From assembly GCA_900317715.1 (NCBI GenBank), contig ONHS01000002.1:20183-84182 (forward strand): 64,000 bases of DNA, given 5' to 3'. The notes below the pieces were generated by a model. That model did no database searches and had not been told where the DNA came from. It saw only the letters and a program-made list of their open reading frames with translations. Within the stretch, counting starts at the first letter, position 1; the number at the start of each line of letters is the position of its first letter. This DNA is from an uncultured Bacteroidales bacterium. GTDB lineage: Bacteria > Bacteroidota > Bacteroidia > Bacteroidales > WCHB1-69. Below are positions 47,428 to 62,703 of this stretch, piece after piece. The translations under genes were made by a program, and so were the position numbers.

Positions 47428-47708
47428 TGAAAGCTTCTTCCTGTTGGTATCTTGCCAATTTCCGGATTAAAACTGCCCTGTTCAAGAAAAAAGACCCTAT
47501 TATCGGTATAATCGACAAGATGTGGGGAATTATGCGGAACGAGGCATTTCCGAAGTATATAAAGATGTAGATTATGCTGTATTTAATTACTATTCAGCAT
47601 ATTACATAAAATTGTGTTTTTAACAAGAAAGTCGCTCATAAAAATGTGTTATGTTTTAAGATAGTCACTCATTTTTTTGTACTTTTGCAGCTGGATAAAA
47701 TCATCAGT

Positions 47709-49004
47709 ATGTATAGAAATGTTATAAATGAGCTGATCAATTGGAAAATGTCACCATATAGGAAGCCCTTGCTTCTGTTGGGTGCACGACAGGTAGGCAA
47801 AACGTATATATTAAAGTACTTTGGCCAATCTTTCTATAAAAATGTAGCATATATCAACTGCGACCACAACGAACGTGTAAAGGATTTGTTCACAGAGGAT
47901 TATGATATAGATCGAATTTTGCTCAGTATCAGCGCAATTACGGGAGAGACCATTATACCTGGAGAAACATTGATAATCCTCGATGAAGTGCAGGAACTGC
48001 GGCGAGGTCTCTCTTCTCTCAAGTATTTCTGCGAAAATGCACCAGAACAGCACGTATGCGTTGCAGGTTCTTTGTTAGGGGTCACGATGCGACACGGGGA
48101 GTCATTTCCCGTCGGCAAAGTGAACATCATTAAAATGTATCCGATGACTTTTGATGAGTTTTTGAGAGCCAAAGGAAAAGATCTTTTAGCTGATCTTTTG
48201 CAAAAAAGGGATTGGGACACTCTCCGAGGAACTCATACTGTATTGATTCAACTTTTGCGCGAATATTATTTTGTTGGGGGAATGCCTGGTGTGGTTTCCC
48301 TTTTCAGAGAAACAAACGATGCCAATATCGTTAGAAAGGCACAGGACGAAATACTATCCGCATACGCCAACGATATGGCAAAACACACCACTCCCACTGA
48401 AATAAAGAGGATTTCGCAGGTTTGGCGATCCATGCCATCACAACTTTCCAAGGAAAACAAAAAATTCATCTATGGTGTTGTGCGTGAAGGAGGGCGCGCC
48501 AAGGATTTCGAGCTTGCCATACAATGGCTTGTTGATGCTGGGCTAGTTCTCCGTGTACCGCGTGTGTCCACCCCTGCGATGCCCTTGAACCTGTACGAGG
48601 ATATTTCCACATTCAAATTATACCTTTTGGATGTTGGACTGTTAGGCGCCTTGGCCGGCACTCCTGCCGAACTGCTTCTGATGCCCAACAATATGGGGGA
48701 AGGGAAAGGTATGTTTACGGAGAACTATGTATGTACTCAATTAGTGGCGGGAACAGGAAGGTTGCCTTTCTACTACAGTCGCGAAAATAGTCGTCTCGAG
48801 ATTGATTTCGTTGTTCAATACGGCACGCAGATTGTGCCTGTTGAAGTGAAGGCTGAGGAAAATCTTCAGTCGAAATCCTTGAAGACCATTTTGCAAAAAC
48901 ATAAAGATTTAACAGCCGTCCGTTTTTCGATGAGTCCTTACCGTGAACAGGAAAGGATGACCAACATGCCGCTATATGGTGCAAGCGTCTGCTTCACCGA
49001 TTGA
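47709..49004 (+). CDS. AAA-family ATPase with a DUF4143-type C-terminus
   Basis: Start at MYRNVINEL. Walker A LLGARQVGKT, Walker B LIILDEVQ, C-terminal ..EIDFVV..VPVEVKA (restriction-endonuclease-like). Confidence 0.75.
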   Translation: MYRNVINELINWKMSPYRKPLLLLGARQVGKTYILKYFGQSFYKNVAYINCDHNERVKDLFTEDYDIDRILLSISAITGETIIPGETLIILDEVQELRRGLSSLKYFCENAPEQHVCVAGSLLGVTMRHGESFPVGKVNIIKMYPMTFDEFLRAKGKDLLADLLQKRDWDTLRGTHTVLIQLLREYYFVGGMPGVVSLFRETNDANIVRKAQDEILSAYANDMAKHTTPTEIKRISQVWRSMPSQLSKENKKFIYGVVREGGRAKDFELAIQWLVDAGLVLRVPRVSTPAMPLNLYEDISTFKLYLLDVGLLGALAGTPAELLLMPNNMGEGKGMFTENYVCTQLVAGTGRLPFYYSRENSRLEIDFVVQYGTQIVPVEVKAEENLQSKSLKTILQKHKDLTAVRFSMSPYREQERMTNMPLYGASVCFTD

Positions 49005-50054: not shown

Positions 50055-51635
50055 ATGCTCAAATATAAAGTATTCATAAGCAGTGTACAATCGGAGTTTT
50101 CACAAGAACGACAGCTTGTTTTTGACTTCATCCGTAATGACGAGTTGATGGGGCAATACTTTGAGCCGTTCATTTTTGAGCAGATTGCCGCACAAGATGC
50201 GAATCCTCGCCAATTATATTTGGATGAGGCTTCTTCGAGCCAGGTTTATCTCCTGTTGGTGGGAAAGAGGTATGGCAATGTTTTGCCAGACGGCATTTCT
50301 CCAACCGAGAAAGAATATCAAGCAGCAGGAGAGGGCAATGCTTGGAGAGTCGCATTCATCAGCGATTTGGACGGACAGCAACGTGAAGATGCGGAAGAAC
50401 GTTTCTTCCGAAAAGTTCAGAACGAGCTTTCATACCGTGTCTTTTCTAATCCTTCTGTCCTGGTGTCGCTGGTCAAACAATCGCTGTATGCGTATCTTAA
50501 ACACAAAGGCGTTATACAAACATTAAGTTTCGACGAACAGACCCGCGATGATGCCTCTATGGCCGATATTGATGCAACGAAAATCAAAGAATTCTTGCAT
50601 CAGGCCCGTCAAAAACGAGGGTTCCCATTGGCCGAAGACTCCGACCCAATCACGGTGCTCCAGCATCTGAGATTGTTGCGGCAGGACAAGCCCAGCAATG
50701 GAGCGTTACTAATGTTCGCCAACGACCCGCAATACTTTTTCCCCTCTGCGGTGGTCAAATGTGCGTGGTTTCTCGGCACAGAGACGGTAAAACCTATCGA
50801 AGATTATAAAACCTTCGAGGGCGGAGTGGCAGATCAAATCAGCCAAGCCACCAGTTGGGTGATGTCGAAACTGTCGGTGCGTTTTGGCCAGCGAAACGTG
50901 GAGGTGCAAAACGAGGTTGAATTTGAGATACCGCGATCCGTCATCTTCGAGACCATTGTGAATGCCGTGGCCCATCGCGACTACAACAGCACGGGGAGTG
51001 TACAGGTTTCCGTATTCCGAAATCGTATTGTGGTACGCAATCCGGGGACGTTGCCTGTAGAACTCACCAAGGCCGACTTGATGAAAGAACATGGCTCTTA
51101 TCCGCATAACCCGTACTTGGCGGAAGTCTTGTACCAGATGGGCTATATCGAGAAATACGGCACAGGCATCACAGAAAATATCCGCAGGATGCAAGAGGCT
51201 CGTCTCCTTGCTCCGGAGATAGACTTGAGCGCCGAGTTCATTACTACGATCTGGCGTGATAATGATGCAACTAATATTGGAACTAACCTTGGAACTAATA
51301 TTGGAACTAATAATGCAACTAATGATGCAACTAATGGTGCAACTAATGATGCAACTTCTAAAGATTATTTAGCTGTCAATAAGCGTATTATAGATAGAAA
51401 AGTGAAAAAGAAAGTAAGAAAAAGAATGACAGAGCAACAATTACAGGAATGCATCGTTGAGGCTTGTTATGTGGAACATTCTATTGAGGAGCTTGCTAAA
51501 CTGTTGGGAAAGTCAGAGTCACACATACGAAACCGATTCATCACCAATATGGTTGCAGACGGAATTCTTTTGCGAACCAAACCAGAACACTCTTCAGGTC
51601 AGACATACATGACAAATCCAAAACTTGACAAATAG
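50055..51635 (+). CDS. DUF4062 N-terminal domain fused to a HATPase_c_4-type ('RecG-like' putative DNA-binding) module and a C-terminal winged helix
   Basis: KVFISSVQSEFSQERQ...VYLLLVGKRYG (DUF4062-like). IVNAVAHRDYNSTGSVQVSVF.NRIVVRNPG..., HNPYLAEVLYQMGYIEKYGTGI. Low-complexity NIGTNLGTNIGTNNATNDATNGATNDAT. Confidence 0.65.
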   Translation: MLKYKVFISSVQSEFSQERQLVFDFIRNDELMGQYFEPFIFEQIAAQDANPRQLYLDEASSSQVYLLLVGKRYGNVLPDGISPTEKEYQAAGEGNAWRVAFISDLDGQQREDAEERFFRKVQNELSYRVFSNPSVLVSLVKQSLYAYLKHKGVIQTLSFDEQTRDDASMADIDATKIKEFLHQARQKRGFPLAEDSDPITVLQHLRLLRQDKPSNGALLMFANDPQYFFPSAVVKCAWFLGTETVKPIEDYKTFEGGVADQISQATSWVMSKLSVRFGQRNVEVQNEVEFEIPRSVIFETIVNAVAHRDYNSTGSVQVSVFRNRIVVRNPGTLPVELTKADLMKEHGSYPHNPYLAEVLYQMGYIEKYGTGITENIRRMQEARLLAPEIDLSAEFITTIWRDNDATNIGTNLGTNIGTNNATNDATNGATNDATSKDYLAVNKRIIDRKVKKKVRKRMTEQQLQECIVEACYVEHSIEELAKLLGKSESHIRNRFITNMVADGILLRTKPEHSSGQTYMTNPKLDK

Positions 51636-51680
51636 GATTGAAATGTTGTCGGCGCGAAAATAGGTTTCGTGATTTATTCG

Positions 51681-51688
51681 TATTTTTG
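51681..51688 (+). promoter_or_regulatory. -7 promoter box of the WYL gene within the shared 25-nt element
   Basis: TTTCGTGATTTATTCGTATTTTTGC (51665-51689), 24/25 identical to 49985-50009. Confidence 0.5.
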
Positions 51689-51709
51689 CCGCCGAAAAAT
51701 CGAAACAAT

Positions 51710-52792
51710 ATGCCCGCAAACAAAAACGCTGTCACGCGCTACTACATTCTCGACAAGTTGTTGGCGAACCGTTACCACAACTACTCGACCGAGGATTTGT
51801 GCCGTCTGGTCAACGAGGAGTTGGAAGAATTGAAGCCAGAAAAGAAAGAGAGTTGGCAAGTGAGCCGTCGTACCATTGAACTTGACCTTCATTATTTGGA
51901 ACACGAAAGCCCTTTTGTCGCTGATATAGAGCATTATCAGATTGATGATGTAAGTCCACGAACTCTCAAGACGATCAAGAAAAGTTGCCATCGTTATGCG
52001 GATCCATCGTTCTCCATCTTCACGCAGAAGCTTACGGATGACGAGAAACATCTGCTTGGCGAAGCTTTCACCCTCCTTGGACAATTTGATGGTCTGCCGA
52101 ATCTTGAGGGTTTGGAAAGGCTCAGGGAGAGTCTCAAAGTGAAGACTGACCGCCAGATTGTGTCGTTCACCAAGAATCCTTTGGAAGGAAAGAGTCTGTT
52201 GGGGGAATTGTTCACTGCCATCACGCAGAAGCAGGTGGTGGAGTTGCATTTCCACAAGTTCGACACGCCTGAAACAGACCGTTCGGCGGTGGTTTTCCCC
52301 TATTTGCTCAAGGAGTATAACCGTCGTTGGTATCTCATCGCTGCTGCCGAAGACACGGGCAAAATACTCAGCTTCGCCCTCGACCGTCTGGACAAGTTCG
52401 TCCCGTTGCCCGCACGTCATTATAAGGAATACGATGGAGACCTCAACGAATGTTTCGAGGACATCATCGGGGTGACGCTCATCGAAGGCAATCCATTGCA
52501 GACCATCCTCTTCTGGGTCAGCGACTATTCCAAAGATTATGTCGCCACAAAACCCTTGCACGAGTCCCAGCGGCATCATAAAGGAAAGCAGGAAAAGGAA
52601 TTGCGCCAACAATACCCGAATCTTGACGGGGGCGCGTTCTTCTCCATCGACTGCATCGAGAACTACGAGCTGATCAGGGAACTGACTTCTTTCGGCAAAG
52701 AGTTGTTGGTTCTTGCTCCGGAGAAAATGCAAGAAGTAATTATCACTAAAATAACAGATATGCTTAACAAATACCAGATGCTAAGCAAATAA
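51710..52792 (+). CDS. WYL-domain transcriptional regulator (HTH-WYL-WCX architecture)
   Basis: Start at MPANKNAVTRYYILDKLL (HTH). VVFPYLLKEYNRRWYLIAAAEDTGKILSFALDRL (WYL core). C-terminal ELLVLAPEKMQE. Confidence 0.85.
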   Translation: MPANKNAVTRYYILDKLLANRYHNYSTEDLCRLVNEELEELKPEKKESWQVSRRTIELDLHYLEHESPFVADIEHYQIDDVSPRTLKTIKKSCHRYADPSFSIFTQKLTDDEKHLLGEAFTLLGQFDGLPNLEGLERLRESLKVKTDRQIVSFTKNPLEGKSLLGELFTAITQKQVVELHFHKFDTPETDRSAVVFPYLLKEYNRRWYLIAAAEDTGKILSFALDRLDKFVPLPARHYKEYDGDLNECFEDIIGVTLIEGNPLQTILFWVSDYSKDYVATKPLHESQRHHKGKQEKELRQQYPNLDGGAFFSIDCIENYELIRELTSFGKELLVLAPEKMQEVIITKITDMLNKYQMLSK

Positions 52793-52827
52793 ATTTTTCT
52801 GCCTCGCTTTACATCTAAATTTTTTCA

Positions 52828-52835
52828 TATCTTTG
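52828..52835 (+). promoter_or_regulatory. -7 promoter box TATCTTTG at the head of the AT-rich operon
   Basis: 36 nt after the WYL stop and 42 nt before ATG 52877. Confidence 0.45.
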
Positions 52836-52876
52836 CATCGTTGACGATAAATATATTTAATAAAACTTATGGTAAA

Positions 52877-53071
52877 ATGAAACCTCTTGAAGCTATGATT
52901 CCATATTGTGGAAATTGTTCGCGTAAAATAAAGAAAGAAGGACTGTCTAAAGATGAGTATTATTGTGATGTTTTCATTGATACTCCGATGAAAGGAATTG
53001 TTACCTCAGATACAGATGGGACTTGTTGTGTAGAATTGGGAGTTTATAAACCAATTCAACAAAATAATTGA
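52877..53071 (+). CDS. Small Cys-rich protein (64 aa), possible zinc ribbon
   Basis: MKPLEAMIPYCGNCSRK...YYCDVF...GTCCVE. First ORF after the operon promoter. The track's TTG start at 52841 is unlikely. Confidence 0.4.
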   Translation: MKPLEAMIPYCGNCSRKIKKEGLSKDEYYCDVFIDTPMKGIVTSDTDGTCCVELGVYKPIQQNN

Positions 53072-53126
53072 ATAAACTTGGAAATATTGAATGAATTAAA
53101 AACTTACTTATAAATGATAATGGATT

Positions 53127-54602
53127 ATGGAAGAAAAATTTGGCTTATTAAAATTGGGCAGTGTAATAAATTTGAAAACTAATGGAAAAGGACAAAATTG
53201 CATATCAAGATTATCCCTTTTACTTGGTCGCAGAATAACATTAAAAGAAATAAATGAATTCATCGAATCGGACAGGTTTTCTCTTGAGTACATTGACAAA
53301 GATGGAAATGAAACAAAGAAAGATTCTTGCACGGGATTTCGATTCAAGTTACCATGGCAAGATGTTAGAGGGAATGACGTTTATGGTCATTTCAAAAAAA
53401 ATGGCTCCATTTTTATGGGTGTGATTTGGAGCGGAAAAAGTGGAAAAAGAAATGTAAACCTTAGAAAGCATGGACACGTTGATCAAACCAGTTGGGATAA
53501 ACTAAAAAAACTATGTGGCAATGAAATAAGTGAGAGTAGTATTGGAGATTATATTACCTCAGATATTGAATATTACAATGGCGCAGGTTACACTAAATTT
53601 CCTGATGGTACAGTGGTAACTTCGGAAACTGGAAAATTCGTTAAGTTTAATACTAGTCTTAATGTCGGAGGGGAAGTGCTGGTTGGCTGGTTTACAAAAG
53701 TTCGAGGACGTTTTGAGGGAATAAGTTGGGGAACGGAAGCGGATTTTAAATCGGCTCAAGAGTTAAGAGAACAGTTCTTTGTGGGGCGTATGGTTTTTGA
53801 TTCTATAGAGAAATGCAACATCTTTTTGGAAGAGCTTAAGGGAAAAATCATTCCTGAGCCATGGGAGTACAAACGTAAGAAAGACGATACTTTTAAAAAC
53901 CCAATATTGAAATCCTATCTACAGTTTGAATTGGATAGACTTTTCTATGAACAGGATGTGTTAAACTATCCCGATAGGATAATAACCAACGAAAGCAATA
54001 GTAAAGTATGGTTTAACACAAATCTTATTAACATATATGGAAAAGAATTGTTTCTTGTTGGCACTCTTTTAGAAATATCTAACAAGATATATATAGGCGA
54101 TCTTGAAATATCACCATCCACAATGAAAATGAGGCAGCTGGGGTTTAAATCATCAAAAAAGCCTTTGCCACCTGTGTTTTTTAAGGATATAAATGAGATT
54201 TTTTTCCATTGGGACTGGGAGATAGATCTAGATATGATAAAATCCGAACACATTATAGGAGAGCGTAAGGAGAGATTTCCGGGAAAATACCATAAGATGA
54301 CAACAGATTCTTTAGGTCGCATACTTGATTCTGCAATAGAATTAGCAAGAAGTATAGCACAACGAAACTATAAGTTTATCGTACCAATGTACTATCCTAC
54401 TGCAAATAGGATTCAATTGTTAATGCCGATATATTTAGAAACTTCTTATTTCGGTAAACCGGATTTTGCGTTAGTATTAACTCCTCATGCAAATGAAAAG
54501 TTGTATACTCCCGAAACAATACTAGGATTAGATGAAGTTTATCAGGATGCGCGGTTAATAGCAAAGCCTGAAGAATCTTGGCTTAACCCTGAGATGTTAT
54601 AA
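53127..54602 (+). CDS. Hypothetical 491-aa protein: two beta-rich N-terminal modules plus a C-terminal region that I tentatively liken to DUF3825
   Basis: Internal duplication: FRFKLPWQDVRGNDVYGHFKKNGSIFMGVIWSG vs VKFNTSLNVGGEVLVGWFTKVRGRFEGISWGT. C-terminal half: PWEY..NPILKSYLQFELDRLFYEQ...WFNTNLINIYGKELF...YQDARLIAKPEESWL. Confidence 0.6.
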   Translation: MEEKFGLLKLGSVINLKTNGKGQNCISRLSLLLGRRITLKEINEFIESDRFSLEYIDKDGNETKKDSCTGFRFKLPWQDVRGNDVYGHFKKNGSIFMGVIWSGKSGKRNVNLRKHGHVDQTSWDKLKKLCGNEISESSIGDYITSDIEYYNGAGYTKFPDGTVVTSETGKFVKFNTSLNVGGEVLVGWFTKVRGRFEGISWGTEADFKSAQELREQFFVGRMVFDSIEKCNIFLEELKGKIIPEPWEYKRKKDDTFKNPILKSYLQFELDRLFYEQDVLNYPDRIITNESNSKVWFNTNLINIYGKELFLVGTLLEISNKIYIGDLEISPSTMKMRQLGFKSSKKPLPPVFFKDINEIFFHWDWEIDLDMIKSEHIIGERKERFPGKYHKMTTDSLGRILDSAIELARSIAQRNYKFIVPMYYPTANRIQLLMPIYLETSYFGKPDFALVLTPHANEKLYTPETILGLDEVYQDARLIAKPEESWLNPEML

Positions 54603-54658
54603 TATAACAATTGTCAACTAAATAAATGTACAAATAGAAAACAACAAAATTATTATGT

Positions 54659-57600
54659 ATGAAATATCCTACAGTTTCAGAATATATAGAATCTCTTCGT
54701 GTTGCAAATGATAATCTTGCAACTTTGACGTCTTTGGAGCTTGTTCTTGGTACTGATGGAAATCCAACTTATTCGAAAGAAAACCATGGTGTTGTCTTTC
54801 GGATGAAAGATAGGGATACCGATTTAGAGTATAATGTAAAATGTTTTACTGATGAACAAGAAGGCAGAGAAACATTGTATGAGCAAATTAATAATAGTCA
54901 AGGTGTATGGTTCCCTGATGGAGTTAAATATTATGCTAACGAGCTATTTGTAGATACTGCGATTTCGGATGCTAATGAATTTCCAGTAGTTGTTATTCCT
55001 TGTTGCAAAACGACAAACCTTATTTCTTTTATCAACACAAACATTGCAAATTGCTCGCTTATCTCAAAACTTGCAGATAGTTTTAGTTGTGTTGTAGAAT
55101 GGGTTAAAGAAAAGGGTTGCTTTTGGCATGAACTAAATGTCGATTCACTTTATGTGAACGACACTGGTCATATTGTTGTTTCGGATATTGACGGACACAT
55201 TGAAACAACTAATTCTACCAAGAAAAACGATGATTTGAACGCATACCTAATTCTTCTATCGCTAAAAGCACTGTATAGGGATTCAAGTTTGTTCAATGCA
55301 AAAGACGTCAAGCCGTATATTCTCTTCGATGGGGATAATTTCACCGAGCTTCCTGCAAATGAGATTATTACAAGATTGTCGATATTAAATGATTCTGAGA
55401 TTTCATCCATAATTAGTGATGTTTTCGTAAAAATTGGACATGGCAATTCTAATGAAACGCGAAACGACTTGCAGCAATCCGAGATTTATGAAGACGGCCT
55501 AAAAATGATGGCGGAAAAGGGAAATGTTACAATGCAATTGCAGCTGGCGCGGAAATGTTGGGATAATGAAATGTATGAAGAATCATTTAAATGGTATAAA
55601 CAAGCAGCATCTCAAGAGGATGCAGATGGTTTATATGGCTTAGGATTGTGTTATCGTAATGGTTTTGGAATAGAAAAGGATTTGACAAAATCATTTCATT
55701 GTTTTCTTAATGCTTCTGAGTTGGGATTGTTGGATGCTCAATATGAACTTGCTGAAGCATATTATTTCGGATGGGGAGTTCGCAAGGATAAGACAAAGGC
55801 AATGGATTTGTATTTCAAAGCTGCTCAAAGGGGGCATGCTATGTCAGAATTTATGATTGGTCATTATCTTATGTTCAATCGTGGAGAGATTGACAGCTCT
55901 TTTGCCATTACAAGTAAACGTGATACAGTGAAGGCATTTGAATGGTTTTTGAAATCCGCTAAACAAGGTTATCATCCTGCACAACGAAGGATAGGTGCAT
56001 TCTATGAAACCGGCACAGACCCTTGTGTAAGAAATATTAGCAAAGCTATGGAGTGGTATCAAAAGGCAGCTGCCCAAGGTAATGATAAAGCCTTGTTTGC
56101 AATAGGAAGATTGTATGCCAATGGTCTTGATGAAAGAAATCCTGATAACAAGAAAGCTTATGAGTATTATTTGCAAGCGGCAAATAAAGGTCTTCGTGAT
56201 GCTCAGTTTAGGGTAGGTGTTGCATTGTTATTTGGCAAGGGGATAGAAAAGGATAAAGATGCAGCTGTTGAGTGGATTCGAAAATCTGCTGACAAAGGTT
56301 ATGCGGCGGCAAAAAAGCTTATCATTGAAATTGAATATAGTGAAGAAGTCTCTGAAGAAACGGGAACCACAGGATTAGAAATAGTATCTGCTACTATTGA
56401 CGATTATGGTGTTCTTTATAGTCAAAACGGGAAAAAACTTTTGAAATATAGTATAGAAGAAGGATTCGATAGTGATGGAATATACGGTGGTTCAATAAGC
56501 ATGTTTGATGAAGAAAGCGAATTTGGAAGCATAAAACAACAAAGTTTAAATCAATATAAAGTAAAAGAAGGGACAGAGATAATCTGTGAGAATGCTTTTT
56601 ACGAATGTGAGTCGTTGGAAAGCATATCTTTACCTTCTACGCTACATGTAATTGGGGAGAGTGCTTTTTTCGGATGTGAAAATCTCTCTTGTGTAACATC
56701 ATATTCCACTCTTAAAAGAATAGGAGAACGAGCTTTTATGGATTGTCATAGTCTAAAGTCAATTGACACTTTAGATGGTGTTGAATCTATCGGGGAGGGT
56801 GCTTTTTCTGGTTGCTATAGTTTGCACAATCTCACTTTGCCAAGTACTTTACAGAAGATAACAGGAAGTACTTTACATGGAGTAAAAAGAATCTTATCCG
56901 AATCAAAAAAATTTTTGGTGGAAGACAATTGTTTGTTAAGTTCAGATAAAAAAACACTGATATATTTTATTCAAAACGAATTAAAGACCTTTGAGATTCC
57001 TAATGGTGTCGAAATCATCGGTTCTTCTGCATTTGAAGGAGCGAATGTTAATTATTTGAAAATCCCTGAAAGTGTCAAAATCATTGGAAATTCATCATTT
57101 TCTGGATGTGCATTAAGGGAAATCTTTTTGCCAGATTCAGTAATACAAATTGGTTATTCAGCTTTTTGTGGGTGCGAAAGTCTAACGAAGGTTCGTTTGC
57201 CGAACCGATTATCTTCTATTGACATACAAACTTTTGATTCGTGTTATAGACTAACAAACATTCATTTACCTAGTTCCATTAAAGAAATTAATCATTGGGC
57301 TTTTGCAAGGACAGGACTCTCTTCTTTTTGTTTTCCTATAAATGTTGAAAAAATTGGATGGGGATTGTTTGCAGGTACTCAAATTAAAAAAATAAATTCG
57401 GAATCAGAATCAATTATTGTTAGAGACATGGCTGTTTATAGCAATCTTGGAAAAACACTATCTCAATATTATGGAAATGAAAAAAAGTTTGTGATTCCAG
57501 AAGGGGTTGAAGAAATATCCAAATTAACTTTCACATCTTATATCAAAGAAATAATCTTTCCAAAGTCAATAAAAAAACTCTGTGATATGATATGGTACGA

Positions 57601-57715
57601 CGGTACTATTCCGGAGAAAATATATGTGCACAAAGAATTCAAAAAAGTCATTCTTGAATATTTACCAGAGTATTATTATAGTCATGTATTTGTAATTGAA
57701 GATGATAGTAATTGA
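54659..57715 (+). CDS. 1018-aa cytoplasmic multidomain protein: N-terminal protein-kinase-like (divergent) domain + about 7 Sel1 repeats + BspA-type leucine-rich repeats
   Basis: No signal peptide. aa 40-190: VVFRMKD..EYNVKCF (beta3 Lys-like), CFWHELNVDSLYVNDTGHIVVSDIDGH (catalytic / DFG-like loops, non-canonical). aa 290-560: Sel1 (AAQGNDKALFAIGRLYANG, ADKGYAAAKKLI). aa 620-1000: ICENAFYECESLESISLPSTLHVIGESAFFGCENL, repeated. Confidence 0.75.
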   Translation: MKYPTVSEYIESLRVANDNLATLTSLELVLGTDGNPTYSKENHGVVFRMKDRDTDLEYNVKCFTDEQEGRETLYEQINNSQGVWFPDGVKYYANELFVDTAISDANEFPVVVIPCCKTTNLISFINTNIANCSLISKLADSFSCVVEWVKEKGCFWHELNVDSLYVNDTGHIVVSDIDGHIETTNSTKKNDDLNAYLILLSLKALYRDSSLFNAKDVKPYILFDGDNFTELPANEIITRLSILNDSEISSIISDVFVKIGHGNSNETRNDLQQSEIYEDGLKMMAEKGNVTMQLQLARKCWDNEMYEESFKWYKQAASQEDADGLYGLGLCYRNGFGIEKDLTKSFHCFLNASELGLLDAQYELAEAYYFGWGVRKDKTKAMDLYFKAAQRGHAMSEFMIGHYLMFNRGEIDSSFAITSKRDTVKAFEWFLKSAKQGYHPAQRRIGAFYETGTDPCVRNISKAMEWYQKAAAQGNDKALFAIGRLYANGLDERNPDNKKAYEYYLQAANKGLRDAQFRVGVALLFGKGIEKDKDAAVEWIRKSADKGYAAAKKLIIEIEYSEEVSEETGTTGLEIVSATIDDYGVLYSQNGKKLLKYSIEEGFDSDGIYGGSISMFDEESEFGSIKQQSLNQYKVKEGTEIICENAFYECESLESISLPSTLHVIGESAFFGCENLSCVTSYSTLKRIGERAFMDCHSLKSIDTLDGVESIGEGAFSGCYSLHNLTLPSTLQKITGSTLHGVKRILSESKKFLVEDNCLLSSDKKTLIYFIQNELKTFEIPNGVEIIGSSAFEGANVNYLKIPESVKIIGNSSFSGCALREIFLPDSVIQIGYSAFCGCESLTKVRLPNRLSSIDIQTFDSCYRLTNIHLPSSIKEINHWAFARTGLSSFCFPINVEKIGWGLFAGTQIKKINSESESIIVRDMAVYSNLGKTLSQYYGNEKKFVIPEGVEEISKLTFTSYIKEIIFPKSIKKLCDMIWYDGTIPEKIYVHKEFKKVILEYLPEYYYSHVFVIEDDSN

Positions 57716-58403
57716 GTCAAAAAGAAAGAAACCAGAAACCCTGCTTGGGGAATATCCTAATGCGGTGTTTTGTGATGTGACGAGCAAATCACCATATCTT
57801 GAATTAAGGCAATTAAGTCCGTTTTATCCATGGGGAGGTATACCTGTTAGTTTTTCACCAGGAGTTGAAGCCTCTTGTGTAGAAGCAGTATGGCAAGGAT
57901 TGAAAGTGTTTGAAAACGCTGATGTTGATACGGAATTGTTTTTAAACAACACTATGAAAGGTCTAAAACGTTCGTCACGAGTTTATGGTAAAGTCTTGGG
58001 GCACAGGAAAGGTGTTGATGGTGAAATATTACTTAATTATCATGATGCTCGTAGAAAAATATACATTCCCACATATAAGTGGATGTTGGAACATAAAGCT
58101 TTTTATACCATTGAATATTTAAGGGCTTTTTGCCAAGAAAACCCCAACGTCACTCTCGTATTATTAGATTATCAGACAAATAGCAATATTGAGGATCTAA
58201 CCAAGCCTTTGTCTCACGCATTTTTGGTTAAATCATACGTAGAGGGATTGCCTCCGTATGATGATGTAGTGATAGAGAAAACGGTTCACCATGTGGTCGT
58301 TGGGCGACGTGTTCATGAATGGCAAACAAAAGAGTATTCATTTAAGAAGCTCCCAGTGGTTGACGACAATAACAAACAATTAGCAATTGATTTCGATGAA
58401 TAG
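57702..58403 (+). CDS. NADAR-like (YbiA/DUF1768-like) protein; candidate ADP-ribose-removing antidote
   Basis: LSPFYPWGGIPVSF..VEASCVEAVWQGLKVF, compared with my recollection of E. coli YbiA (FSNFAAWPIKVDGKTWPTSEHYFQAQKF). It overlaps the upstream gene by 14 nt and the downstream gene by 8 nt. Confidence 0.5.
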   Translation: MIVIESKRKKPETLLGEYPNAVFCDVTSKSPYLELRQLSPFYPWGGIPVSFSPGVEASCVEAVWQGLKVFENADVDTELFLNNTMKGLKRSSRVYGKVLGHRKGVDGEILLNYHDARRKIYIPTYKWMLEHKAFYTIEYLRAFCQENPNVTLVLLDYQTNSNIEDLTKPLSHAFLVKSYVEGLPPYDDVVIEKTVHHVVVGRRVHEWQTKEYSFKKLPVVDDNNKQLAIDFDE

Positions 58404-59805
58404 AAGGAAGGATTACAAAGAATTTAAGCAACTTCTTGAGAAGTATAATATTACAAAGTTTTATCACTTCACAGACCATGACAATGTTGATTCTATAATC
58501 AAGAATGGTGGATTGTTCTCTTATGGTGATTGTATTAAACGCGGAATTAGAATAAACAGGCCAGGTGGGTCGGCGTTGTCGCACGAACTGGATTATAAAG
58601 AAAATTTGCAAAATTATGTTAGGGTTAGTTTATGCAAGAAACATCCAATGATGTTTACAGCAATACAGGATGAACGAATCGTAAACCCTGTGATATTGGA
58701 AATTGACACAGATGTTCTTTTTATAGAGGGTAATATTTTTTCAGATAAGAATGCGGTTCGGAAAGATTCATGTAAGGGAAAGAGTTTCGCTGATTTTAGC
58801 AGAATACATTTCAATACAGTCAAACAAAGGAACCAATTTGAGGTTGATGATGACGAGCAAGACTATTATCAGGCAGAAATACTGGTACCACATCACATCT
58901 CGCTTAACTATATTTTGAATTTGACCGATTTCCAAACATTGGATTCTGAGAGAAAAGAGAGTTGTCTTAAGATACCTTATTCTTCAGCCATTACTCGGGA
59001 AAATCCAGCTGGTATTTTCTTCATACTTAATCAATCGTATCCCACAGAAGAAAAGATAGAGTATGGAGGTGAAAAGATGTCCAAGGCAAGAGTTGAAGGA
59101 GGCATTGTTGATAAAGTGATAAACGAACTTATTTTGAGTAATACAAGTAATGGCGTCCTCAATGATAAGTATAATATTTCTGTTATTGGATATGGTGACT
59201 ATGCGTATAGTTGCATTGAAAAAGGAAATGTTCATACTTTGAAAGAGCTCCAAGATAATCCATTGTTTGTTAGAACAATGTCCAAAAAAACTAAGACACG
59301 ACAAGGAACAAAAACAATCGAGATAAAACAACCAACATGGATAAAAACTAATAGTGATGGGGATGCAAAACTATATAAAGCCCTAAATAAAGCTCGAGAT
59401 ATAATTGAGAACTGGGCAGAGGAACATGAATCGTCATACCCACCTATTGTGATACACATCACAGAATACAGATACCATGGCGCGGATGATAGTGATATGA
59501 AGCAAATGGCAAACCAAATAAAGTCCATATTTACAAAAGATGGGAATGCCTTGTTTTTCAACATCATTCTCACGGAAAAGGAAGATGCTGTTTCCGTACT
59601 ATTTCCATATGACAATCAAGCAGTTTCAGACTCATATTATGGGACGATGTATTGTTTAATGTCCAGCATTTTGCCAAAATCATTTAATCAAAATGTCGCT
59701 TGTTTTAATGAGATTGAAGATGTTTTATGTCAAAGATATGGAATAGCCTTTAATGTTAAATTCAAGGACTTATTTGATACTATACTCTCTATTATACCAA
59801 AATGA
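58396..59805 (+). CDS. DarT-like (DUF4433) ADP-ribosyltransferase fused to a vWA-like domain with a degenerate MIDAS
   Basis: N-terminus: KFYHFTDHDNVDSIIKNGGL, LQNYVRVSLCKKHPMMF, PVILEIDTDVLFIEGNIFSDKNAV, DYYQAEILVPHHISLNYILNL. These are collinear with the DarT motifs IYHITH..NL..IL, DYVPFYF, FTD.N and KQAEFLV (catalytic Glu). C-terminus: IFFILNQSYP... YNISVIGYGD... GDAKLYKALNKARDII... PPIVIHITEY..., a TerY-type vWA layout with DxSxS -> NQSYP. Confidence 0.8.
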   Translation: MNRRKDYKEFKQLLEKYNITKFYHFTDHDNVDSIIKNGGLFSYGDCIKRGIRINRPGGSALSHELDYKENLQNYVRVSLCKKHPMMFTAIQDERIVNPVILEIDTDVLFIEGNIFSDKNAVRKDSCKGKSFADFSRIHFNTVKQRNQFEVDDDEQDYYQAEILVPHHISLNYILNLTDFQTLDSERKESCLKIPYSSAITRENPAGIFFILNQSYPTEEKIEYGGEKMSKARVEGGIVDKVINELILSNTSNGVLNDKYNISVIGYGDYAYSCIEKGNVHTLKELQDNPLFVRTMSKKTKTRQGTKTIEIKQPTWIKTNSDGDAKLYKALNKARDIIENWAEEHESSYPPIVIHITEYRYHGADDSDMKQMANQIKSIFTKDGNALFFNIILTEKEDAVSVLFPYDNQAVSDSYYGTMYCLMSSILPKSFNQNVACFNEIEDVLCQRYGIAFNVKFKDLFDTILSIIPK

Positions 59806-60142
59806 ACTGGTCTTGTAAGTATAAATATTCTCTTTTGATATTTACAGAACGACACCTGAAATCACCATTTCAGACAATTCGCGACAGGTGAACTTTTTAT
59901 GACAAGAATATTTTGCAACCAGCTGTCATTTAGTGAATTATATGATTGTTTGTGGTGATTTTAGTGAACCAATCAGTCCAAACAAACATACAATCAGCAA
60001 GGCATCGCTAGGTTTTTCAACGGCGACGAGACGCTGGAGAGACAAACACCCCCCTCTTTGCAAGCCTTGCAACCCCTCCCTCATCACCCGAAATATCGTA
60101 TTTTTGCGCCGGTTAATAATTGTAAGTAAGAGTGCTCATATT

Positions 60143-60295
60143 ATGAATGATACACTACCAAAAGAAGTCCATCATCAGAAGGCGTTGTTCAGCCGGGACC
60201 TGCCTTTTAAGCCTCAATATGGCATGATGCTGTATGTCGAGGCGGGCGCGAATGAAGAGATCGACGGGTACTTTCACAAGAATATGATTGGGTAG
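60143..60295 (+). CDS. Possible small ORF (50 aa) behind a -7 box
   Basis: TATTTTTG box at 60099-60106, 37 nt upstream of the ATG. MNDTLPKEVHHQKALFSRDL.. No family recognised. Confidence 0.25.
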   Translation: MNDTLPKEVHHQKALFSRDLPFKPQYGMMLYVEAGANEEIDGYFHKNMIG

Positions 60296-60400
60296 CGTTC
60301 GGGGCACGAAAGCGATGGAGGAAGCGGAGGCGCTGGGGAGGGCGATAGCACAATAATTTTCATCTCATCCCGTTTACCTTTCGTTTTGAAACCCTTTTCA

Positions 60401-60754
60401 ATGAACAATACTCTACGTGTTATACTGAAGGTCCTGATGGTCATCACCTGGGTTTTGATGATGGGGTGGTATATATCCCTTCTCCTCACCCTCCTGCAGG
60501 CATATCGCATGTACGGGAATATGCCCATTGGTGAAGTTCCATACTTTTCTCTGCCCATGTTCGATTTTTGTTTTGTGTTTGGATTTTTCAATTTTCTGGT
60601 GATGATATTCATGGGATTTCCTTTGAATCTTTGGAATATGGTCAATGAATTCAAGTTCAAGAAGTTCAGTACCCTTATGATTTCGGCCTGTTACATTTTC
60701 CTTGCCGTGGTATTCGTTATCATTTGGTTTTACCTTTGGTCATATATCGACTGA
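60401..60754 (+). CDS. Small 3-4-TM membrane protein upstream of vanW-like
   Basis: MNNTLRVILKVLMVITWVLMMGW... An alternative TTG start lies at 60386. Confidence 0.5.
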   Translation: MNNTLRVILKVLMVITWVLMMGWYISLLLTLLQAYRMYGNMPIGEVPYFSLPMFDFCFVFGFFNFLVMIFMGFPLNLWNMVNEFKFKKFSTLMISACYIFLAVVFVIIWFYLWSYID

Positions 60755-60779
60755 TCTCATCTTGTTTTTCACCCCAACA

Positions 60780-61595
60780 ATGAAACGGAAACTGTTTTGT
60801 GAAATATCACCTTTTACCTATCGTCTTTCGACGGAGAAGGAAATCCTGAAGCGGCATCTGAAGGATTTGTCCCAGAAGACCCTCTTTGCCAAAGAAAGAT
60901 CAACAACAGCATTGCCTGAGCTTGTTTGGCAGCACAATTCCCTTATCCGTCGTCGGTTAGGCAATGTCAATATGCAATTGCAGGAGAACAAGGCCACCAA
61001 TTTGGCTTTGGCCGTGAAACACATTGACAGACTGCTGATTCGTCCCGGCGAGACCTTCTCGGTCTGGAAGTGCATCGGCCGAACCACTAAGCGGAAGGGC
61101 TACAAAGAGGGGCTTACCATCGCGAAAGGGCAGCCGGCGCAAGGAATTGGCGGCGGGATGTGCCAATTGTCGAACCTGATACACTGGATGGTTCTGCATA
61201 GCGAGCTGACCATCACGGAGCACCATCACCACGACGGGTTGGACCTTTTCCCCGATTTCGGCCGGCAAATTCCGTTCGGCACAGGCACCAGCATCTCGTA
61301 CAACTACCTCGATTACCGGGTGAGGAACGACTCGGACAACACCTACCAACTACGGTTATGGGTGGATGAGGAATATCTCTGTGGCGAACTCCGCGCGGCA
61401 GAACCCCAACCCCACACCTTCCATATCCATATCGAGAATGAACGCTTTACCCGTGAAGACGGGGTCGTCTATCGCAACGGCGAGGTCTATCGGGACATCC
61501 TCGATCCCGCCACGGGTCGCTGTCTCGACAGCCAACTCATCCGCACCAACCACGCCAAGGTTATGTACGAATGTCCGGAGGAACTAATCGAATAA
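60780..61595 (+). CDS. VanW-family protein
   Basis: Start at MKRKLFCEISPFTY. PGETFSVWKCIGRTTKRKGY, QGIGGGMCQLSNLIHW, GTGTSISYNYLDYRVRN. Confidence 0.85.
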   Translation: MKRKLFCEISPFTYRLSTEKEILKRHLKDLSQKTLFAKERSTTALPELVWQHNSLIRRRLGNVNMQLQENKATNLALAVKHIDRLLIRPGETFSVWKCIGRTTKRKGYKEGLTIAKGQPAQGIGGGMCQLSNLIHWMVLHSELTITEHHHHDGLDLFPDFGRQIPFGTGTSISYNYLDYRVRNDSDNTYQLRLWVDEEYLCGELRAAEPQPHTFHIHIENERFTREDGVVYRNGEVYRDILDPATGRCLDSQLIRTNHAKVMYECPEELIE

Positions 61596-61919: not shown

Positions 61920-62222
61920 ATGAGCACCGAAATGATGAAAAAGGTTATTGCCGACTACTTTGAGACGCAGCCCGTCTTGAAGGCTTGGCTTTTCGGTTCC
62001 TTCGCCCGTGGCGAGGAGACCCCGAGAAGCGATGTGGATATCCTTTTCGTGCCCGACCGCTCTGGCAAACCCTTCACGCTCTTCACGCATGGCGGCATGC
62101 TGATGGATTTGCAGGAGTTGCTCGGACGCGAGGTCGATTTGGTAGAAGAAGGATCGCTCCGTCCGTATGCCGCTGAAACAGCTAACCGTGATAAAATACT
62201 GATTTATGAGAGAAAGAGCTAG
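61920..62222 (+). CDS. MNT-type nucleotidyltransferase (antitoxin of the HepT/MNT type VII TA pair)
   Basis: WLFGSFARGEETPRSDVDILF (GSxxRGxxxxxSDxD). Confidence 0.85.
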   Translation: MSTEMMKKVIADYFETQPVLKAWLFGSFARGEETPRSDVDILFVPDRSGKPFTLFTHGGMLMDLQELLGREVDLVEEGSLRPYAAETANRDKILIYERKS

Positions 62223-62703
62223 AGACAAAGGGCGTTTGGAGGATATCATTGAATATTCCGACAATGTCACGAAGTTCATCAGTGGCCACACTTTTGAGAC
62301 ATTTGTTGCCGACAAGCTTACATACTATTCCGTGATGAAGAATGTGGAAGTAGTGGGCGAAGCAGCCTATATGTTGAGCAAAGCATTTAAAAAGGCACAT
62401 TCTAAGACACCTTGGAAGACAGTTCAGGGTATGCGCCACGTCTTAGTTCACGACTATGCCAATGTTGTTGCAGCAACACTCTACGACACCGCCGTCAACG
62501 GTATCCCCGAATTACGCGAACAGGTGGAGAAGTACCTCGCAGAAACAGACTGGGAGGCATGGGCTTCCGCTCCTGACGATTTTGAAGACTCCGTTGATGA
62601 AAGTGTTGCGAAAGTCGCCCGCAACATGAAAGCCAAAGGTTATGCCGTTGGCGATATTGCCGAGATTACGGGGTTGACGGAGGAGGAGATAAGGGGATTG
62701 TAG
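62206..62703 (+). CDS. HepT-like (DUF86) toxin with a C-terminal extension of about 50 aa
   Basis: Rx4HxY motif in QGMRHVLVHDYANV. Overlaps the MNT gene by 17 nt. The tail ends AKGYAVGDIAEITGLTEEEIRGL. Confidence 0.8.
   Translation: MRERARDKGRLEDIIEYSDNVTKFISGHTFETFVADKLTYYSVMKNVEVVGEAAYMLSKAFKKAHSKTPWKTVQGMRHVLVHDYANVVAATLYDTAVNGIPELREQVEKYLAETDWEAWASAPDDFEDSVDESVAKVARNMKAKGYAVGDIAEITGLTEEEIRGL

Follow-up and report, generated by a model that had tools for sequence, protein, structure and literature searches.

The target gene and its module

The window analyzed here is a stretch of 64,000 nucleotides (nt) from an uncultured Bacteroidales bacterium (contig ONHS01000002.1, positions 20,183 to 84,182). 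On its forward strand, an open reading frame (ORF) with an ATG start at 54659..57715 encodes a cytoplasmic protein of 1018 amino acids (aa), in which a pseudokinase domain is followed by Sel1 repeats and by BspA-type leucine-rich repeats (LRRs) of the family LRR_5. This gene, which we call the target gene, is the first of a translationally coupled three-gene module. It overlaps a DUF6939 gene (57702..58403, forward strand) by 14 nt if the latter starts at the ATG at 57702, or by 20 nt if it starts at the TTG at 57696. The DUF6939 gene in turn overlaps by 8 nt with a gene for a DarT toxin domain fused to a TerY-like vWA domain (DarT::vWA; 58396..59805, forward strand). The module sits in a region with a G+C content of 35%, compared to about 50% in the rest of the window. 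The target gene is predicted identically on six public rumen-metagenome contigs. A scan for promoters and terminators with a sigma-70 model, which is unsuited to Bacteroidales promoters, performed no better on the real sequence than on shuffles.

Pfam recognizes two parts of the target protein, the Sel1 repeats (E=1.5e-48, six significant stretches; aa 291–585, 55529..56413) and the LRR_5 repeats (E=1.5e-64; aa ~641–1009, 56579..57685), and has no match within aa 1–290. An earlier note on this DNA, made from the sequence alone, had named both repeat types, the overlap with a NADAR-like gene and the lack of a signal peptide, and all of these observations stand. LRR_5 repeats are common to BspA-like secreted or surface LRR proteins, whose export signal is absent here. 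We found no signal peptide, lipobox or transmembrane segment in the target protein (the highest 19-residue Kyte–Doolittle mean is 1.27), and no type IX secretion system (T9SS) tail in the Pfam output. Homologues begin directly with the kinase domain and carry neither signal peptides nor T9SS tails, which the earlier note had named as marks of a surface adhesin. There is a partial NCBIfam match to the adhesin HupY/LrrG, at 100.6 bits against a cut-off of 1250. We rejected the reading as a BspA-type surface adhesin because the export signals are absent.

The N-terminal pseudokinase domain

By its fold and its ancestry, the N-terminal domain (aa 1–288; 54659..55522) belongs to the kinase superfamily, yet it is a pseudokinase. 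A direct sequence search with these residues against the PDB yielded only noise (E>0.9), so that homologues and a structural model were needed to establish the link to kinases. The homologue search returned 54 proteins, two of them close fragments with 55–57% identity and the others with 30–35%. The proteins in the second group (E down to 7.5e-34) carry the Pfam domain PF00069 (Pkinase), which scores above the gathering threshold where we re-tested it. An AlphaFold2 model of the domain reached a predicted local distance difference test (pLDDT) value of 83 and a predicted template modeling (TM) score of 0.79. When this model was compared to the PDB with Foldseek, the top matches were all protein kinases (GCN2, BMX, JAK3, PKR, PknB), among 844 matches at E<=1e-3 with TM scores of 0.40–0.46. 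The bilobal kinase-like fold that the earlier note had anticipated is borne out by these results. The domain also matches the PADLOC model STK_OB, with E=2.3e-4 for the target protein and 2.5e-50 for an active relative. Judging by such profile matches, it belongs to the Ser/Thr kinase (STK) family of the TerY-P phosphorylation triads (STK_OB/ZnR).

Motif equivalences were set by aligning the family profile to PAK1 (E=1.5e-7). The catalytic loop of the family, HGDLKPDN, corresponds to HRDIKSDN in PAK1, the motif with the Mg-binding Asp, DYDG, to DFG, and the P+1/APE motif, GSPDFRHP, to GTPYWMAPE. Several of the residues expected in a kinase are kept in the target protein: K61 (the beta3 Lys, in VKCF), E66 (in EQEGR), Q67, R70 and D176. 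K61 and E66 align with near-invariant columns of the family, and according to the alignment they would form the beta3 Lys/alphaC Glu pair.

Other residues are not kept. The catalytic loop reads F155-W-H-E-L-N-V-D-S163 where the consensus is A-H-G-D-L-K-P-D-N, which replaces the Asp with E158, the Lys with N160 and the Asn with S163. A deletion of 22 residues takes out the activation loop and the P+1/APE segment, so that GSPDFRHP is absent and the activation segment measures 9 residues, compared to 30–31 in sister kinases. Because both the catalytic loop and the activation segment are lost, we call the domain a pseudokinase, which settles the choice between atypical kinase and pseudokinase that the earlier note had left. 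The note was also right that the Asp of the HRD motif reads Glu (E158). Its statement that DFG reads DID holds as an alignment, since D176 of DIDG aligns with DFG of PAK1 and DYDG of the family. It does not hold as a sign of degeneracy, because the consensus of the active family is itself DYDG.

The partner genes

The DUF6939 gene encodes a protein of 233 aa (Pfam DUF6939 E=2.1e-64), which we predict to be a NADAR-like, de-ADP-ribosylating antitoxin. NADARs undo the ADP-ribosylation of guanine and function as antitoxins of DarT1 (PMC11543638). Pfam NADAR-DarT1 matches the protein below threshold (E=0.0042). The AlphaFold2 model (pLDDT 89.7) has one meaningful Foldseek match in the PDB, the NADAR of Geobacter lovleyi (8bat; E=1.6e-3, probability 1.0, TM score 0.43–0.46). 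This NADAR is DarT1-associated, in agreement with the sub-threshold Pfam match. Together, the model and the profile are suggestive of a NADAR-like protein with a predicted role as antidote. A DUF6939 profile found nothing among PDB sequences, and the model had no significant match among the viral structures of BFVD (best E=0.16).

The third gene encodes a protein of 469 aa, counted from its ATG, that is recognized by Pfam as DarT (E=8.8e-28) and by PADLOC as both TerY (E=1.8e-34) and DarT (E=1.3e-15). The best match of its DarT domain among PDB sequences is E. coli DarT1 (8baq, E=4e-7), whereas the Thermus enzyme is matched only at E=0.34. E. coli DarT1 is guanine-specific and the Thermus DarT is thymidine-specific. 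The DarT1-like ADP-ribosyltransferase domain spans about aa 1–195 and has the motifs YHFTD and QAE (E164); the equivalent of the QAE Glu is essential in Taq DarT (PMC5179494). In the vWA domain, the metal ion-dependent adhesion site (MIDAS) reads N215-Q-S-Y-P219 and T-E360-Y, compared to DxSxS and TDG. NCBIfam holds no models for the PP2C, DUF6939 or vWA parts of the system.

The parent system in Bacteroidales

A scan with one genome per species identified relatives of DarT::vWA in 158 species genomes. We examined the best 80 of these 158 loci, which we annotated with an ORF caller and with hidden Markov models made for this analysis; individual loci are given L numbers below. Nearly all of them come from Bacteroidales of the gut or rumen, Segatella copri and Parabacteroides distasonis among them. 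In the 80 loci examined, the kinase, DUF6939 and DarT::vWA are conserved together. The target gene therefore does belong with its neighbors, as had been proposed.

Around the kinase relatives we find a recurrent array, in which one to five kinases that differ in their tails are accompanied by DUF6939, by a DarT protein of some 480 aa and by a protein of about 265 aa, and often also by DUF1810. With PADLOC, the kinases match the STK of TerY-P at E=2.5e-50, and the C-terminal half of the DarT protein matches TerY, at E=4.5e-47 in a relative and at 1.8e-34 in the window. PADLOC recognizes the protein of 265 aa as PP2C, at E=2.6e-12 and 4.7e-14. PP2C lies directly downstream of DarT::vWA in 68 of the 73 species loci with enough downstream sequence, and DUF6939 lies directly upstream in 66 of the 72 with enough upstream sequence. 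What the earlier note had missed is the framework of the system: a TerY-P triad grafted onto a DarT/NADAR-like toxin–antitoxin pair.

Complete loci contain one to four kinase genes, except for two that have none. The kinases end in C-terminal tails of LRR_5, Sel1, FGE-sulfatase or Fib_succ_major type or in a second kinase domain. FGE-sulfatase tails occur in L057, L066, L075 and L089, a Fib_succ_major tail in L062 (6576–8228) and two kinase domains in L067 (6534–9392), and L010 contains as many as five kinase paralogues in a tandem row. The diversity of tails and the tandem paralogues suggest a panel of sensors that feed into one effector. Both families are large, with 4717 clusters at 90% identity for DUF6939 (E<=1e-5) and 612 representatives at 50% identity for the kinase domain (E<=1e-3).

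Further genes accompany some of the loci. In 15 of the 80 loci (e.g., L007, 13588–14838), the gene after PP2C encodes a DUF1810 protein, whose N-terminus matches the NCBIfam model "A1S_2505 family phage non-structural protein" (E=1.1e-35). A DUF1810 gene also comes after DarT::vWA in L016, the closest relative of the window, but is lacking in the window. Genes for ADP_ribosyl_GH proteins (DraG/ARH-type) lie a few kilobases upstream of the kinases in L010 (395–1192) and L100 (1207–2007) and could provide a second ADP-ribose-removing activity tied to the system. In L013 (1–5616), the system adjoins genes for a tyrosine integrase, DUF6043, HTH_17 and DUF5906, which probably places it on an integrative mobile element. 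Orphan DUF6939 genes that are 58% identical to that of the window are found beside a PIN-domain gene, with no DarT or kinase nearby (L098, 8001–8699; L099, 1661–2359). By analogy to the orphan NADAR antitoxins reported from phages, these may be stand-alone antidotes. A search of IMG/VR viral contigs with short peptide seeds found no relatives of DarT::vWA.

A clade without PP2C

Five species loci have no PP2C, and they are the window's nearest relatives (L016 to L020). Three metagenomic loci that we reached via DUF6939 (L096, L097 and L100) have the same three-gene core and also lack PP2C. We treat these loci as one clade of at least eight distinct members, in which the window and L016 are near-identical and count once. 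A tblastn search with two PP2C orthologues found no remnant of the gene in the 64-kb window.

PP2C is not the only component that is gone. We compared the clade to 90 kinases with a complete catalytic loop from 56 PP2C-containing loci. In these, the loop is xHxD[LIV]KxxN in 90 of 90 cases. In the clade it is scrambled, not conserved and different in each member (WHELNVDS, WHDLNADH, WSDLDVNK, WNKLDISK, WYDLSADS, WHNLNADY, WNYLDASN), and the Lys and Asn of the loop are lost in all members. At the DFG position, 90 of 90 active kinases have DYDG, whereas the clade has DIDG, DIDE, DFDE, DIDD or NLDD. The activation segment is 30–31 residues long in PP2C-containing loci and 9–13 in the clade. Other positions have been retained, namely K61, E66, Q67, R70 and D178. 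The earlier note had asked how well the VKCF Lys and the HELN and DID residues are conserved among homologues. The Lys (K61) sits in a near-invariant column and is conserved in the clade, HELN is not conserved there, and in DID the second Asp (D178) is conserved while the first (D176) is Asn in two members.

The vWA domain has changed in parallel. Its MIDAS is DxSxS...TDG in every PP2C-containing locus and NQS.P...T(E/S)(Y/F/C) in all readable members of the clade (L100 was not matched), whereas the DarT motifs YHFTD and QAE are present in both groups alike. At columns that are at least 95% conserved across PP2C-containing loci, the clade has changes in 4 of 67 DarT positions, all conservative, compared to 36 of 108 vWA positions (Fisher test, p=1.4e-5). 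Four Thr residues that PP2C-containing loci conserve and the clade has lost, T208, T224, T327 and T354 in window numbering, are candidate phosphosites. The DUF6939 protein of the clade has an additional C-terminal beta-hairpin (58270–58340, aa ~190–214, model pLDDT ~85) that the PP2C-linked versions lack, which indicates that the antidote diverged jointly with the pseudokinase and the vWA domain. The losses of kinase catalysis, of the vWA MIDAS and of PP2C are coordinated. What is retained is the toxin domain together with the antidote and the repeat scaffolds. With a scrambled catalytic loop, no activation and P+1 segment, no MIDAS in the vWA domain and no phosphatase gene, the target protein, as far as its sequence allows us to judge, cannot signal by phosphotransfer.

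By both DUF6939 and kinase counts the clade makes up roughly 1% of the family; the module is a rare offshoot of a very common system of gut and rumen Bacteroidales. Two of its members, L096 (5096–8014) and L097 (4853–8014), have an identical DUF6939 protein and large proteins of 972 and 1053 aa, and lie at different chromosomal sites. The difference in length is at least partly due to an upstream start call in L097.

Sel1 repeats and exchange of the LRR cassette

The Sel1 region is the best-conserved part of the protein within the clade, with 64–70% identity to L017 and L018. Pairwise ratios of nonsynonymous to synonymous substitution rates (dN/dS), which are approximate because dS is saturated in most pairs, are 0.08–0.12 for Sel1 (informative comparisons), 0.13–0.30 for the pseudokinase domain and 0.15–0.33 for the LRRs. 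All of these values are well below 1, and the pseudokinase is under purifying selection.

The LRR region has a different history. The window and L016, which comes from the metagenome-assembled genome RUG13189, are 98.95% identical in DNA over 54609–56616 and 98.8% identical over 57685–60286. Between these flanks, at 56617–57684 (8291–9298 in L016), no DNA similarity is detectable. The replaced stretch is the LRR module (aa ~653–1009), whose amino-acid identity between window and L016 is 36–45%. Its 5' junction lies in the first repeat, at a conserved FxECESL motif, and its 3' junction ten codons before the stop. The LRR of the window is 38–43% identical to that of every clade member, and this holds for proteins whose other parts are 99% identical as well as for those at 31%. 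Each lineage thus has its own cassette. Among all members, the LRR modules form a star-like pattern with about 40% identity.

A repeat search over 52800–60400 found no template and variable repeats like those of diversity-generating retroelements. This leaves recombination as the likely route by which LRR cassettes are exchanged. The earlier note had called the protein the likely sensor of the operon. A sensor role of the repeats is plausible, and it is backed by the interchangeable tails of the kinases and by a swap between strains that affects only the LRRs.

Discussion

The identity and ancestry of the target protein are near certain. On balance, we think that it probably acts as a noncatalytic receptor or adaptor, which controls a DarT1-like toxin by binding within the three-gene module. 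The sequence comparisons establish the domain identities, the conserved linkage of the genes, the joint losses, the retention of effector and antidote, purifying selection and the replacement of the LRR cassette. From these we infer how the proteins touch each other, what triggers them, which base is modified and that the module acts against phages.

Such a protein would have its origin in a TerY-P triad, in which PP2C and a TerY-type vWA stand beside Ser/Thr kinases whose ligand-binding tails vary. This triad would control a DarT1-like DNA ADP-ribosyltransferase, with the NADAR-like hydrolase as a standby antidote. The kinases of the parent system would detect ligands by means of these tails, and their substrate would be a partner or the TerY-vWA part of the toxin. 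The phosphate mark would be read by the MIDAS and reset by PP2C, and DUF6939 would clear stray DNA modification. In the lineage of the window, this phospho-switch would have been dismantled as a unit, with stable binding in place of the phosphorylation step. The pseudokinase and Sel1 part may retain the ancestral docking contact between kinase and vWA, now to a remodeled vWA. At rest, it would keep DarT::vWA inactive, or close to DUF6939. The swappable LRR_5 cassette would bind the trigger, an invader (phage) protein. Binding would change the complex such that DarT is released or activated and ADP-ribosylates DNA, probably at guanine like DarT1, which would block replication. DUF6939 would strip stray modification and avert self-poisoning.

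Several points weigh against this explanation. First, contacts of the pseudokinase with DarT::vWA or DUF6939 are our inference. Second, the anti-phage role is proposed by analogy to TerY-P and DarTG and from the neighboring genes, and PADLOC has no model for the composite system. Third, the similarity of DUF6939 to NADAR is marginal (Foldseek E=1.6e-3; Pfam E=0.0042, below the cut-off). The vWA fold is assigned from the PADLOC TerY profile and a MIDAS-like motif pattern; Pfam VWA_2 is sub-threshold in relatives (0.024) and absent in the window protein, and a profile of 40 vWA sequences found no vWA in the PDB. Fourth, the saturation of dS in most comparisons also makes the dN/dS values approximate. 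One could also argue that the loss of kinase activity, MIDAS and PP2C could mean that a regulatory layer was dispensable, and that the large protein was recruited away from the control of DarT.

A more far-reaching claim is that the clade is a natural knockout. Because kinase catalysis, MIDAS and PP2C are lost together and the rest is kept, the ancestral phosphorylated residue would have been read by the metal site of the MIDAS. Ancestral TerY-P would then contain a phospho-MIDAS switch, and the derived pseudokinase-Sel1-LRR protein would be an immune receptor that works by direct binding, independently of phosphorylation, and whose effector ADP-ribosylates DNA. The exchange of a single LRR cassette would reprogram the specificity of the receptor. 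We put this forward tentatively and consider it doubtful. If true, bacteria would possess a modular, swappable cytoplasmic LRR receptor, analogous to the pseudokinase-assisted immunity of plants that involves nucleotide-binding leucine-rich repeat receptors (NLRs).

The alternative that survives best is that the module is a toxin–antitoxin, addiction or growth-control element. DarT::vWA and DUF6939 would be the working pair, and the big protein would be a scaffold or chaperone or would respond to endogenous stress. A DarT beside a NADAR-like gene is already a toxin–antitoxin arrangement, and it lies in a low-GC, mosaic and probably mobile stretch, with a related locus beside an integrase. DarTG is also reported to govern growth in M. 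tuberculosis (PMC12170906). Finally, we found no link to phages: a search of IMG/VR with short peptide seeds gave no relative of DarT::vWA. Nevertheless, the LRR swap and the interchangeable tails fit the recognition of fast-evolving foreign targets and not that of a housekeeping signal. In addition, two articles describe both TerY-P (PMC11090510, citing Gao 2020) and DarTG (PMC9503650, citing LeRoux 2022) as anti-phage systems. We think that this alternative is unlikely, although it is far from absurd.

It is improbable that the target gene is a decaying relic, with only DarT and DUF6939 still mattering after PP2C and kinase activity were lost. Decay would explain why three regulatory features were lost together, why catalytic-loop residues drift freely among clade members and why the pseudokinase is less constrained than Sel1 (dN/dS up to 0.30 compared to 0.08–0.12). 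It would not explain intact ORFs of about 970–1050 aa in at least eight distinct clade members at 31–80% identity and with dN/dS well below 1. Nor would it explain that K61, E66, Q67 and R70 of the N-lobe are conserved and that the genes are still translationally coupled. In the clade, we found no locus that has DarT::vWA but a missing or broken pseudokinase gene.

Even less probable is that the target protein is still an enzyme, either an atypical kinase that works through E158, D162 and D176 or one with a different chemistry, such as AMPylation, that acts on DarT::vWA or on a foreign protein. "Pseudokinases" with unexpected chemistry are known, for example SelO-type AMPylation, and with K61, E66 and D176/D178 kept, nucleotide binding would be plausible. 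Against this, clade members have E, E, D, D, K, D, N and Y where the catalytic Asp should be, and none of them retains either the Lys or the Asn of the loop. The activation and P+1/APE segment has been deleted, there is no phosphatase to match, and the MIDAS of the vWA domain has gone as well. It is hardly credible that the gene encodes a BspA-like surface adhesin and is unconnected with its neighbors: this would account for the LRR_5 repeats and the partial HupY/LrrG match, but not for the absence of signal peptide, lipobox, transmembrane segment and T9SS tail, for an N-terminus that is a conserved cytoplasmic kinase domain, from residue 1 in most family members, or for a gene that overlaps its neighbor in an order conserved across species.

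In its presumed mode of action, the module most resembles a TerY-P-regulated toxin and DarT1-NADAR. TerY-P combines a TerY-type vWA, PP2C and a Ser/Thr kinase and is hypothesized to be a metal-sensing phosphorylation switch, of which one version is anti-phage (Anantharaman et al. 2012; Gao et al. 2020; via PMC11090510 and PMC4978471). The resemblance lies in the N-terminal domain, which falls in the STK_OB kinase family of PADLOC, in the partner with a TerY-profile domain and in the sister loci with the full triad including PP2C. There are also clear differences. The kinase has lost catalysis, the MIDAS has degenerated and a PP2C gene is missing. As its tail the kinase has Sel1 and LRR_5 in place of an OB fold or a zinc ribbon. 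The TerY part is joined to the DarT toxin domain, and a NADAR-like gene lies between kinase and TerY. Since an active kinase, a MIDAS and PP2C are each missing, we do not consider the module a strict member of TerY-P.

DarT1-NADAR (Schuller et al. 2023, PMC11543638; LeRoux et al. 2022) shares with the module the conserved His and catalytic Glu motifs of the toxin, which is closest to E. coli DarT1, and an upstream gene whose product, as modeled, bears a marginal resemblance to a DarT1-associated NADAR. In our module, the toxin is fused to a TerY-like domain, and its toxicity and base specificity are predicted. The antitoxin is DUF6939, which is marginally NADAR-like and has the clade-specific C-terminal beta-hairpin. 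Furthermore, a third, large receptor-like gene is obligatorily linked.

Other systems are less similar. Stk2, PD-T4-6, Mad6 of MADS and the KKP module are kinase-based anti-phage systems (PMC11341870). Active relatives of the target protein match the PD-T4-6 and Mad6 kinase profiles, and those systems pair a kinase with a phosphatase. They phosphorylate their targets, however, which the target protein is predicted to be incapable of, and the effector here is DarT. The LRR_5 surface proteins of BspA type, known from Bacteroidales and oral bacteria, share the Pfam repeat family with the target. Unlike them, the target is cytoplasmic, lacks signals for export and joins its repeats to a kinase fold; here the repeats would serve as an intracellular binding module.

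The earlier note had also compared the protein to LRR receptor kinases and to STAND sensors. Receptor-kinase logic applies to the ancestral PP2C-containing systems but not to the target protein, in which catalysis and switch are lost. The likeness to STAND sensors does not hold, and we rejected a STAND- or NLR-type sensor because there is no NTPase domain. In plants, the pseudokinases RKS1 and ZED1 act with the NLR ZAR1. The analogy would be purely functional: in both cases a kinase fold may be kept for binding or allostery and joined to recognition in an immune setting. There is no homology beyond the kinase fold. In the target protein the recognition repeats are built into the polypeptide itself, an NTPase switch is missing, and the effector is an enzyme that ADP-ribosylates DNA.

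The module is a variant assembled from known parts. In the literature we found no paper that names DUF6939 and none that ties DarT to TerY-P, vWA or a kinase, although an earlier mention in the 2012 TerY-P paper (PMC4104200) is possible. Neither PADLOC nor NCBIfam models the composite of kinase, DUF6939, DarT::TerY-vWA and PP2C. The parent system is abundant in gut and rumen Bacteroidales yet nameless, and its parts are annotated as hypothetical. It joins the TerY-P and DarT/NADAR defense modules and gives TerY-P a defined effector. In the clade, nature has in effect dissected the TerY-P switch: kinase activity, MIDAS and phosphatase vanish together, which hints at how the switch is wired. The clean exchange of an LRR cassette between near-identical strains provides a handle on what cytoplasmic BspA-type repeats recognize.

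Neighboring genes

Upstream of the target gene and separated from it by a gap of 56 nt lies a DUF3825 gene (53127..54602, forward strand; Pfam DUF3825 E=4.6e-47). The N-terminal 236 residues of its product have no family match. DUF3825 occurs in only 1 of the 80 related loci, and on that count we rejected it as a core partner. The segment that contains it (52877–54607) is 80% identical in DNA to L016, beside a target gene that is about 99% identical, and forms a second mosaic segment. DUF3825, target, DUF6939 and DarT::vWA genes all lie in a low-GC stretch (52000–60000, 35–40% compared to about 50%), which suggests horizontal acquisition.

Further upstream on the forward strand, Pfam identifies a DUF4062+HATPase_c_4 gene (50055–51635) and a WYL/WCX regulator gene (51638–52792). 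L018 and L097 have similar pairs upstream. Of the 80 related loci, 16 have HATPase_c_4-type proteins and 4 have WYL proteins. The two genes may be accessory regulators; they are not part of the core. The DUF4062+HATPase_c_4 protein of the window has PADLOC matches to Argonaute-associated PNTD regions, and in several sister loci Schlafen-AlbA_2/HATPase_c_4 proteins are encoded directly upstream of DUF6939.

Taken as a whole, the neighborhood looks like a defense or toxin–antitoxin island. It also includes an AAA_14/DUF4143 ATPase gene at 47646–49004 and, after a VanW-domain gene (60702–61595), a toxin–antitoxin pair of MNT (NTP_transf_2/Polbeta) and HepT at 61920–62703.

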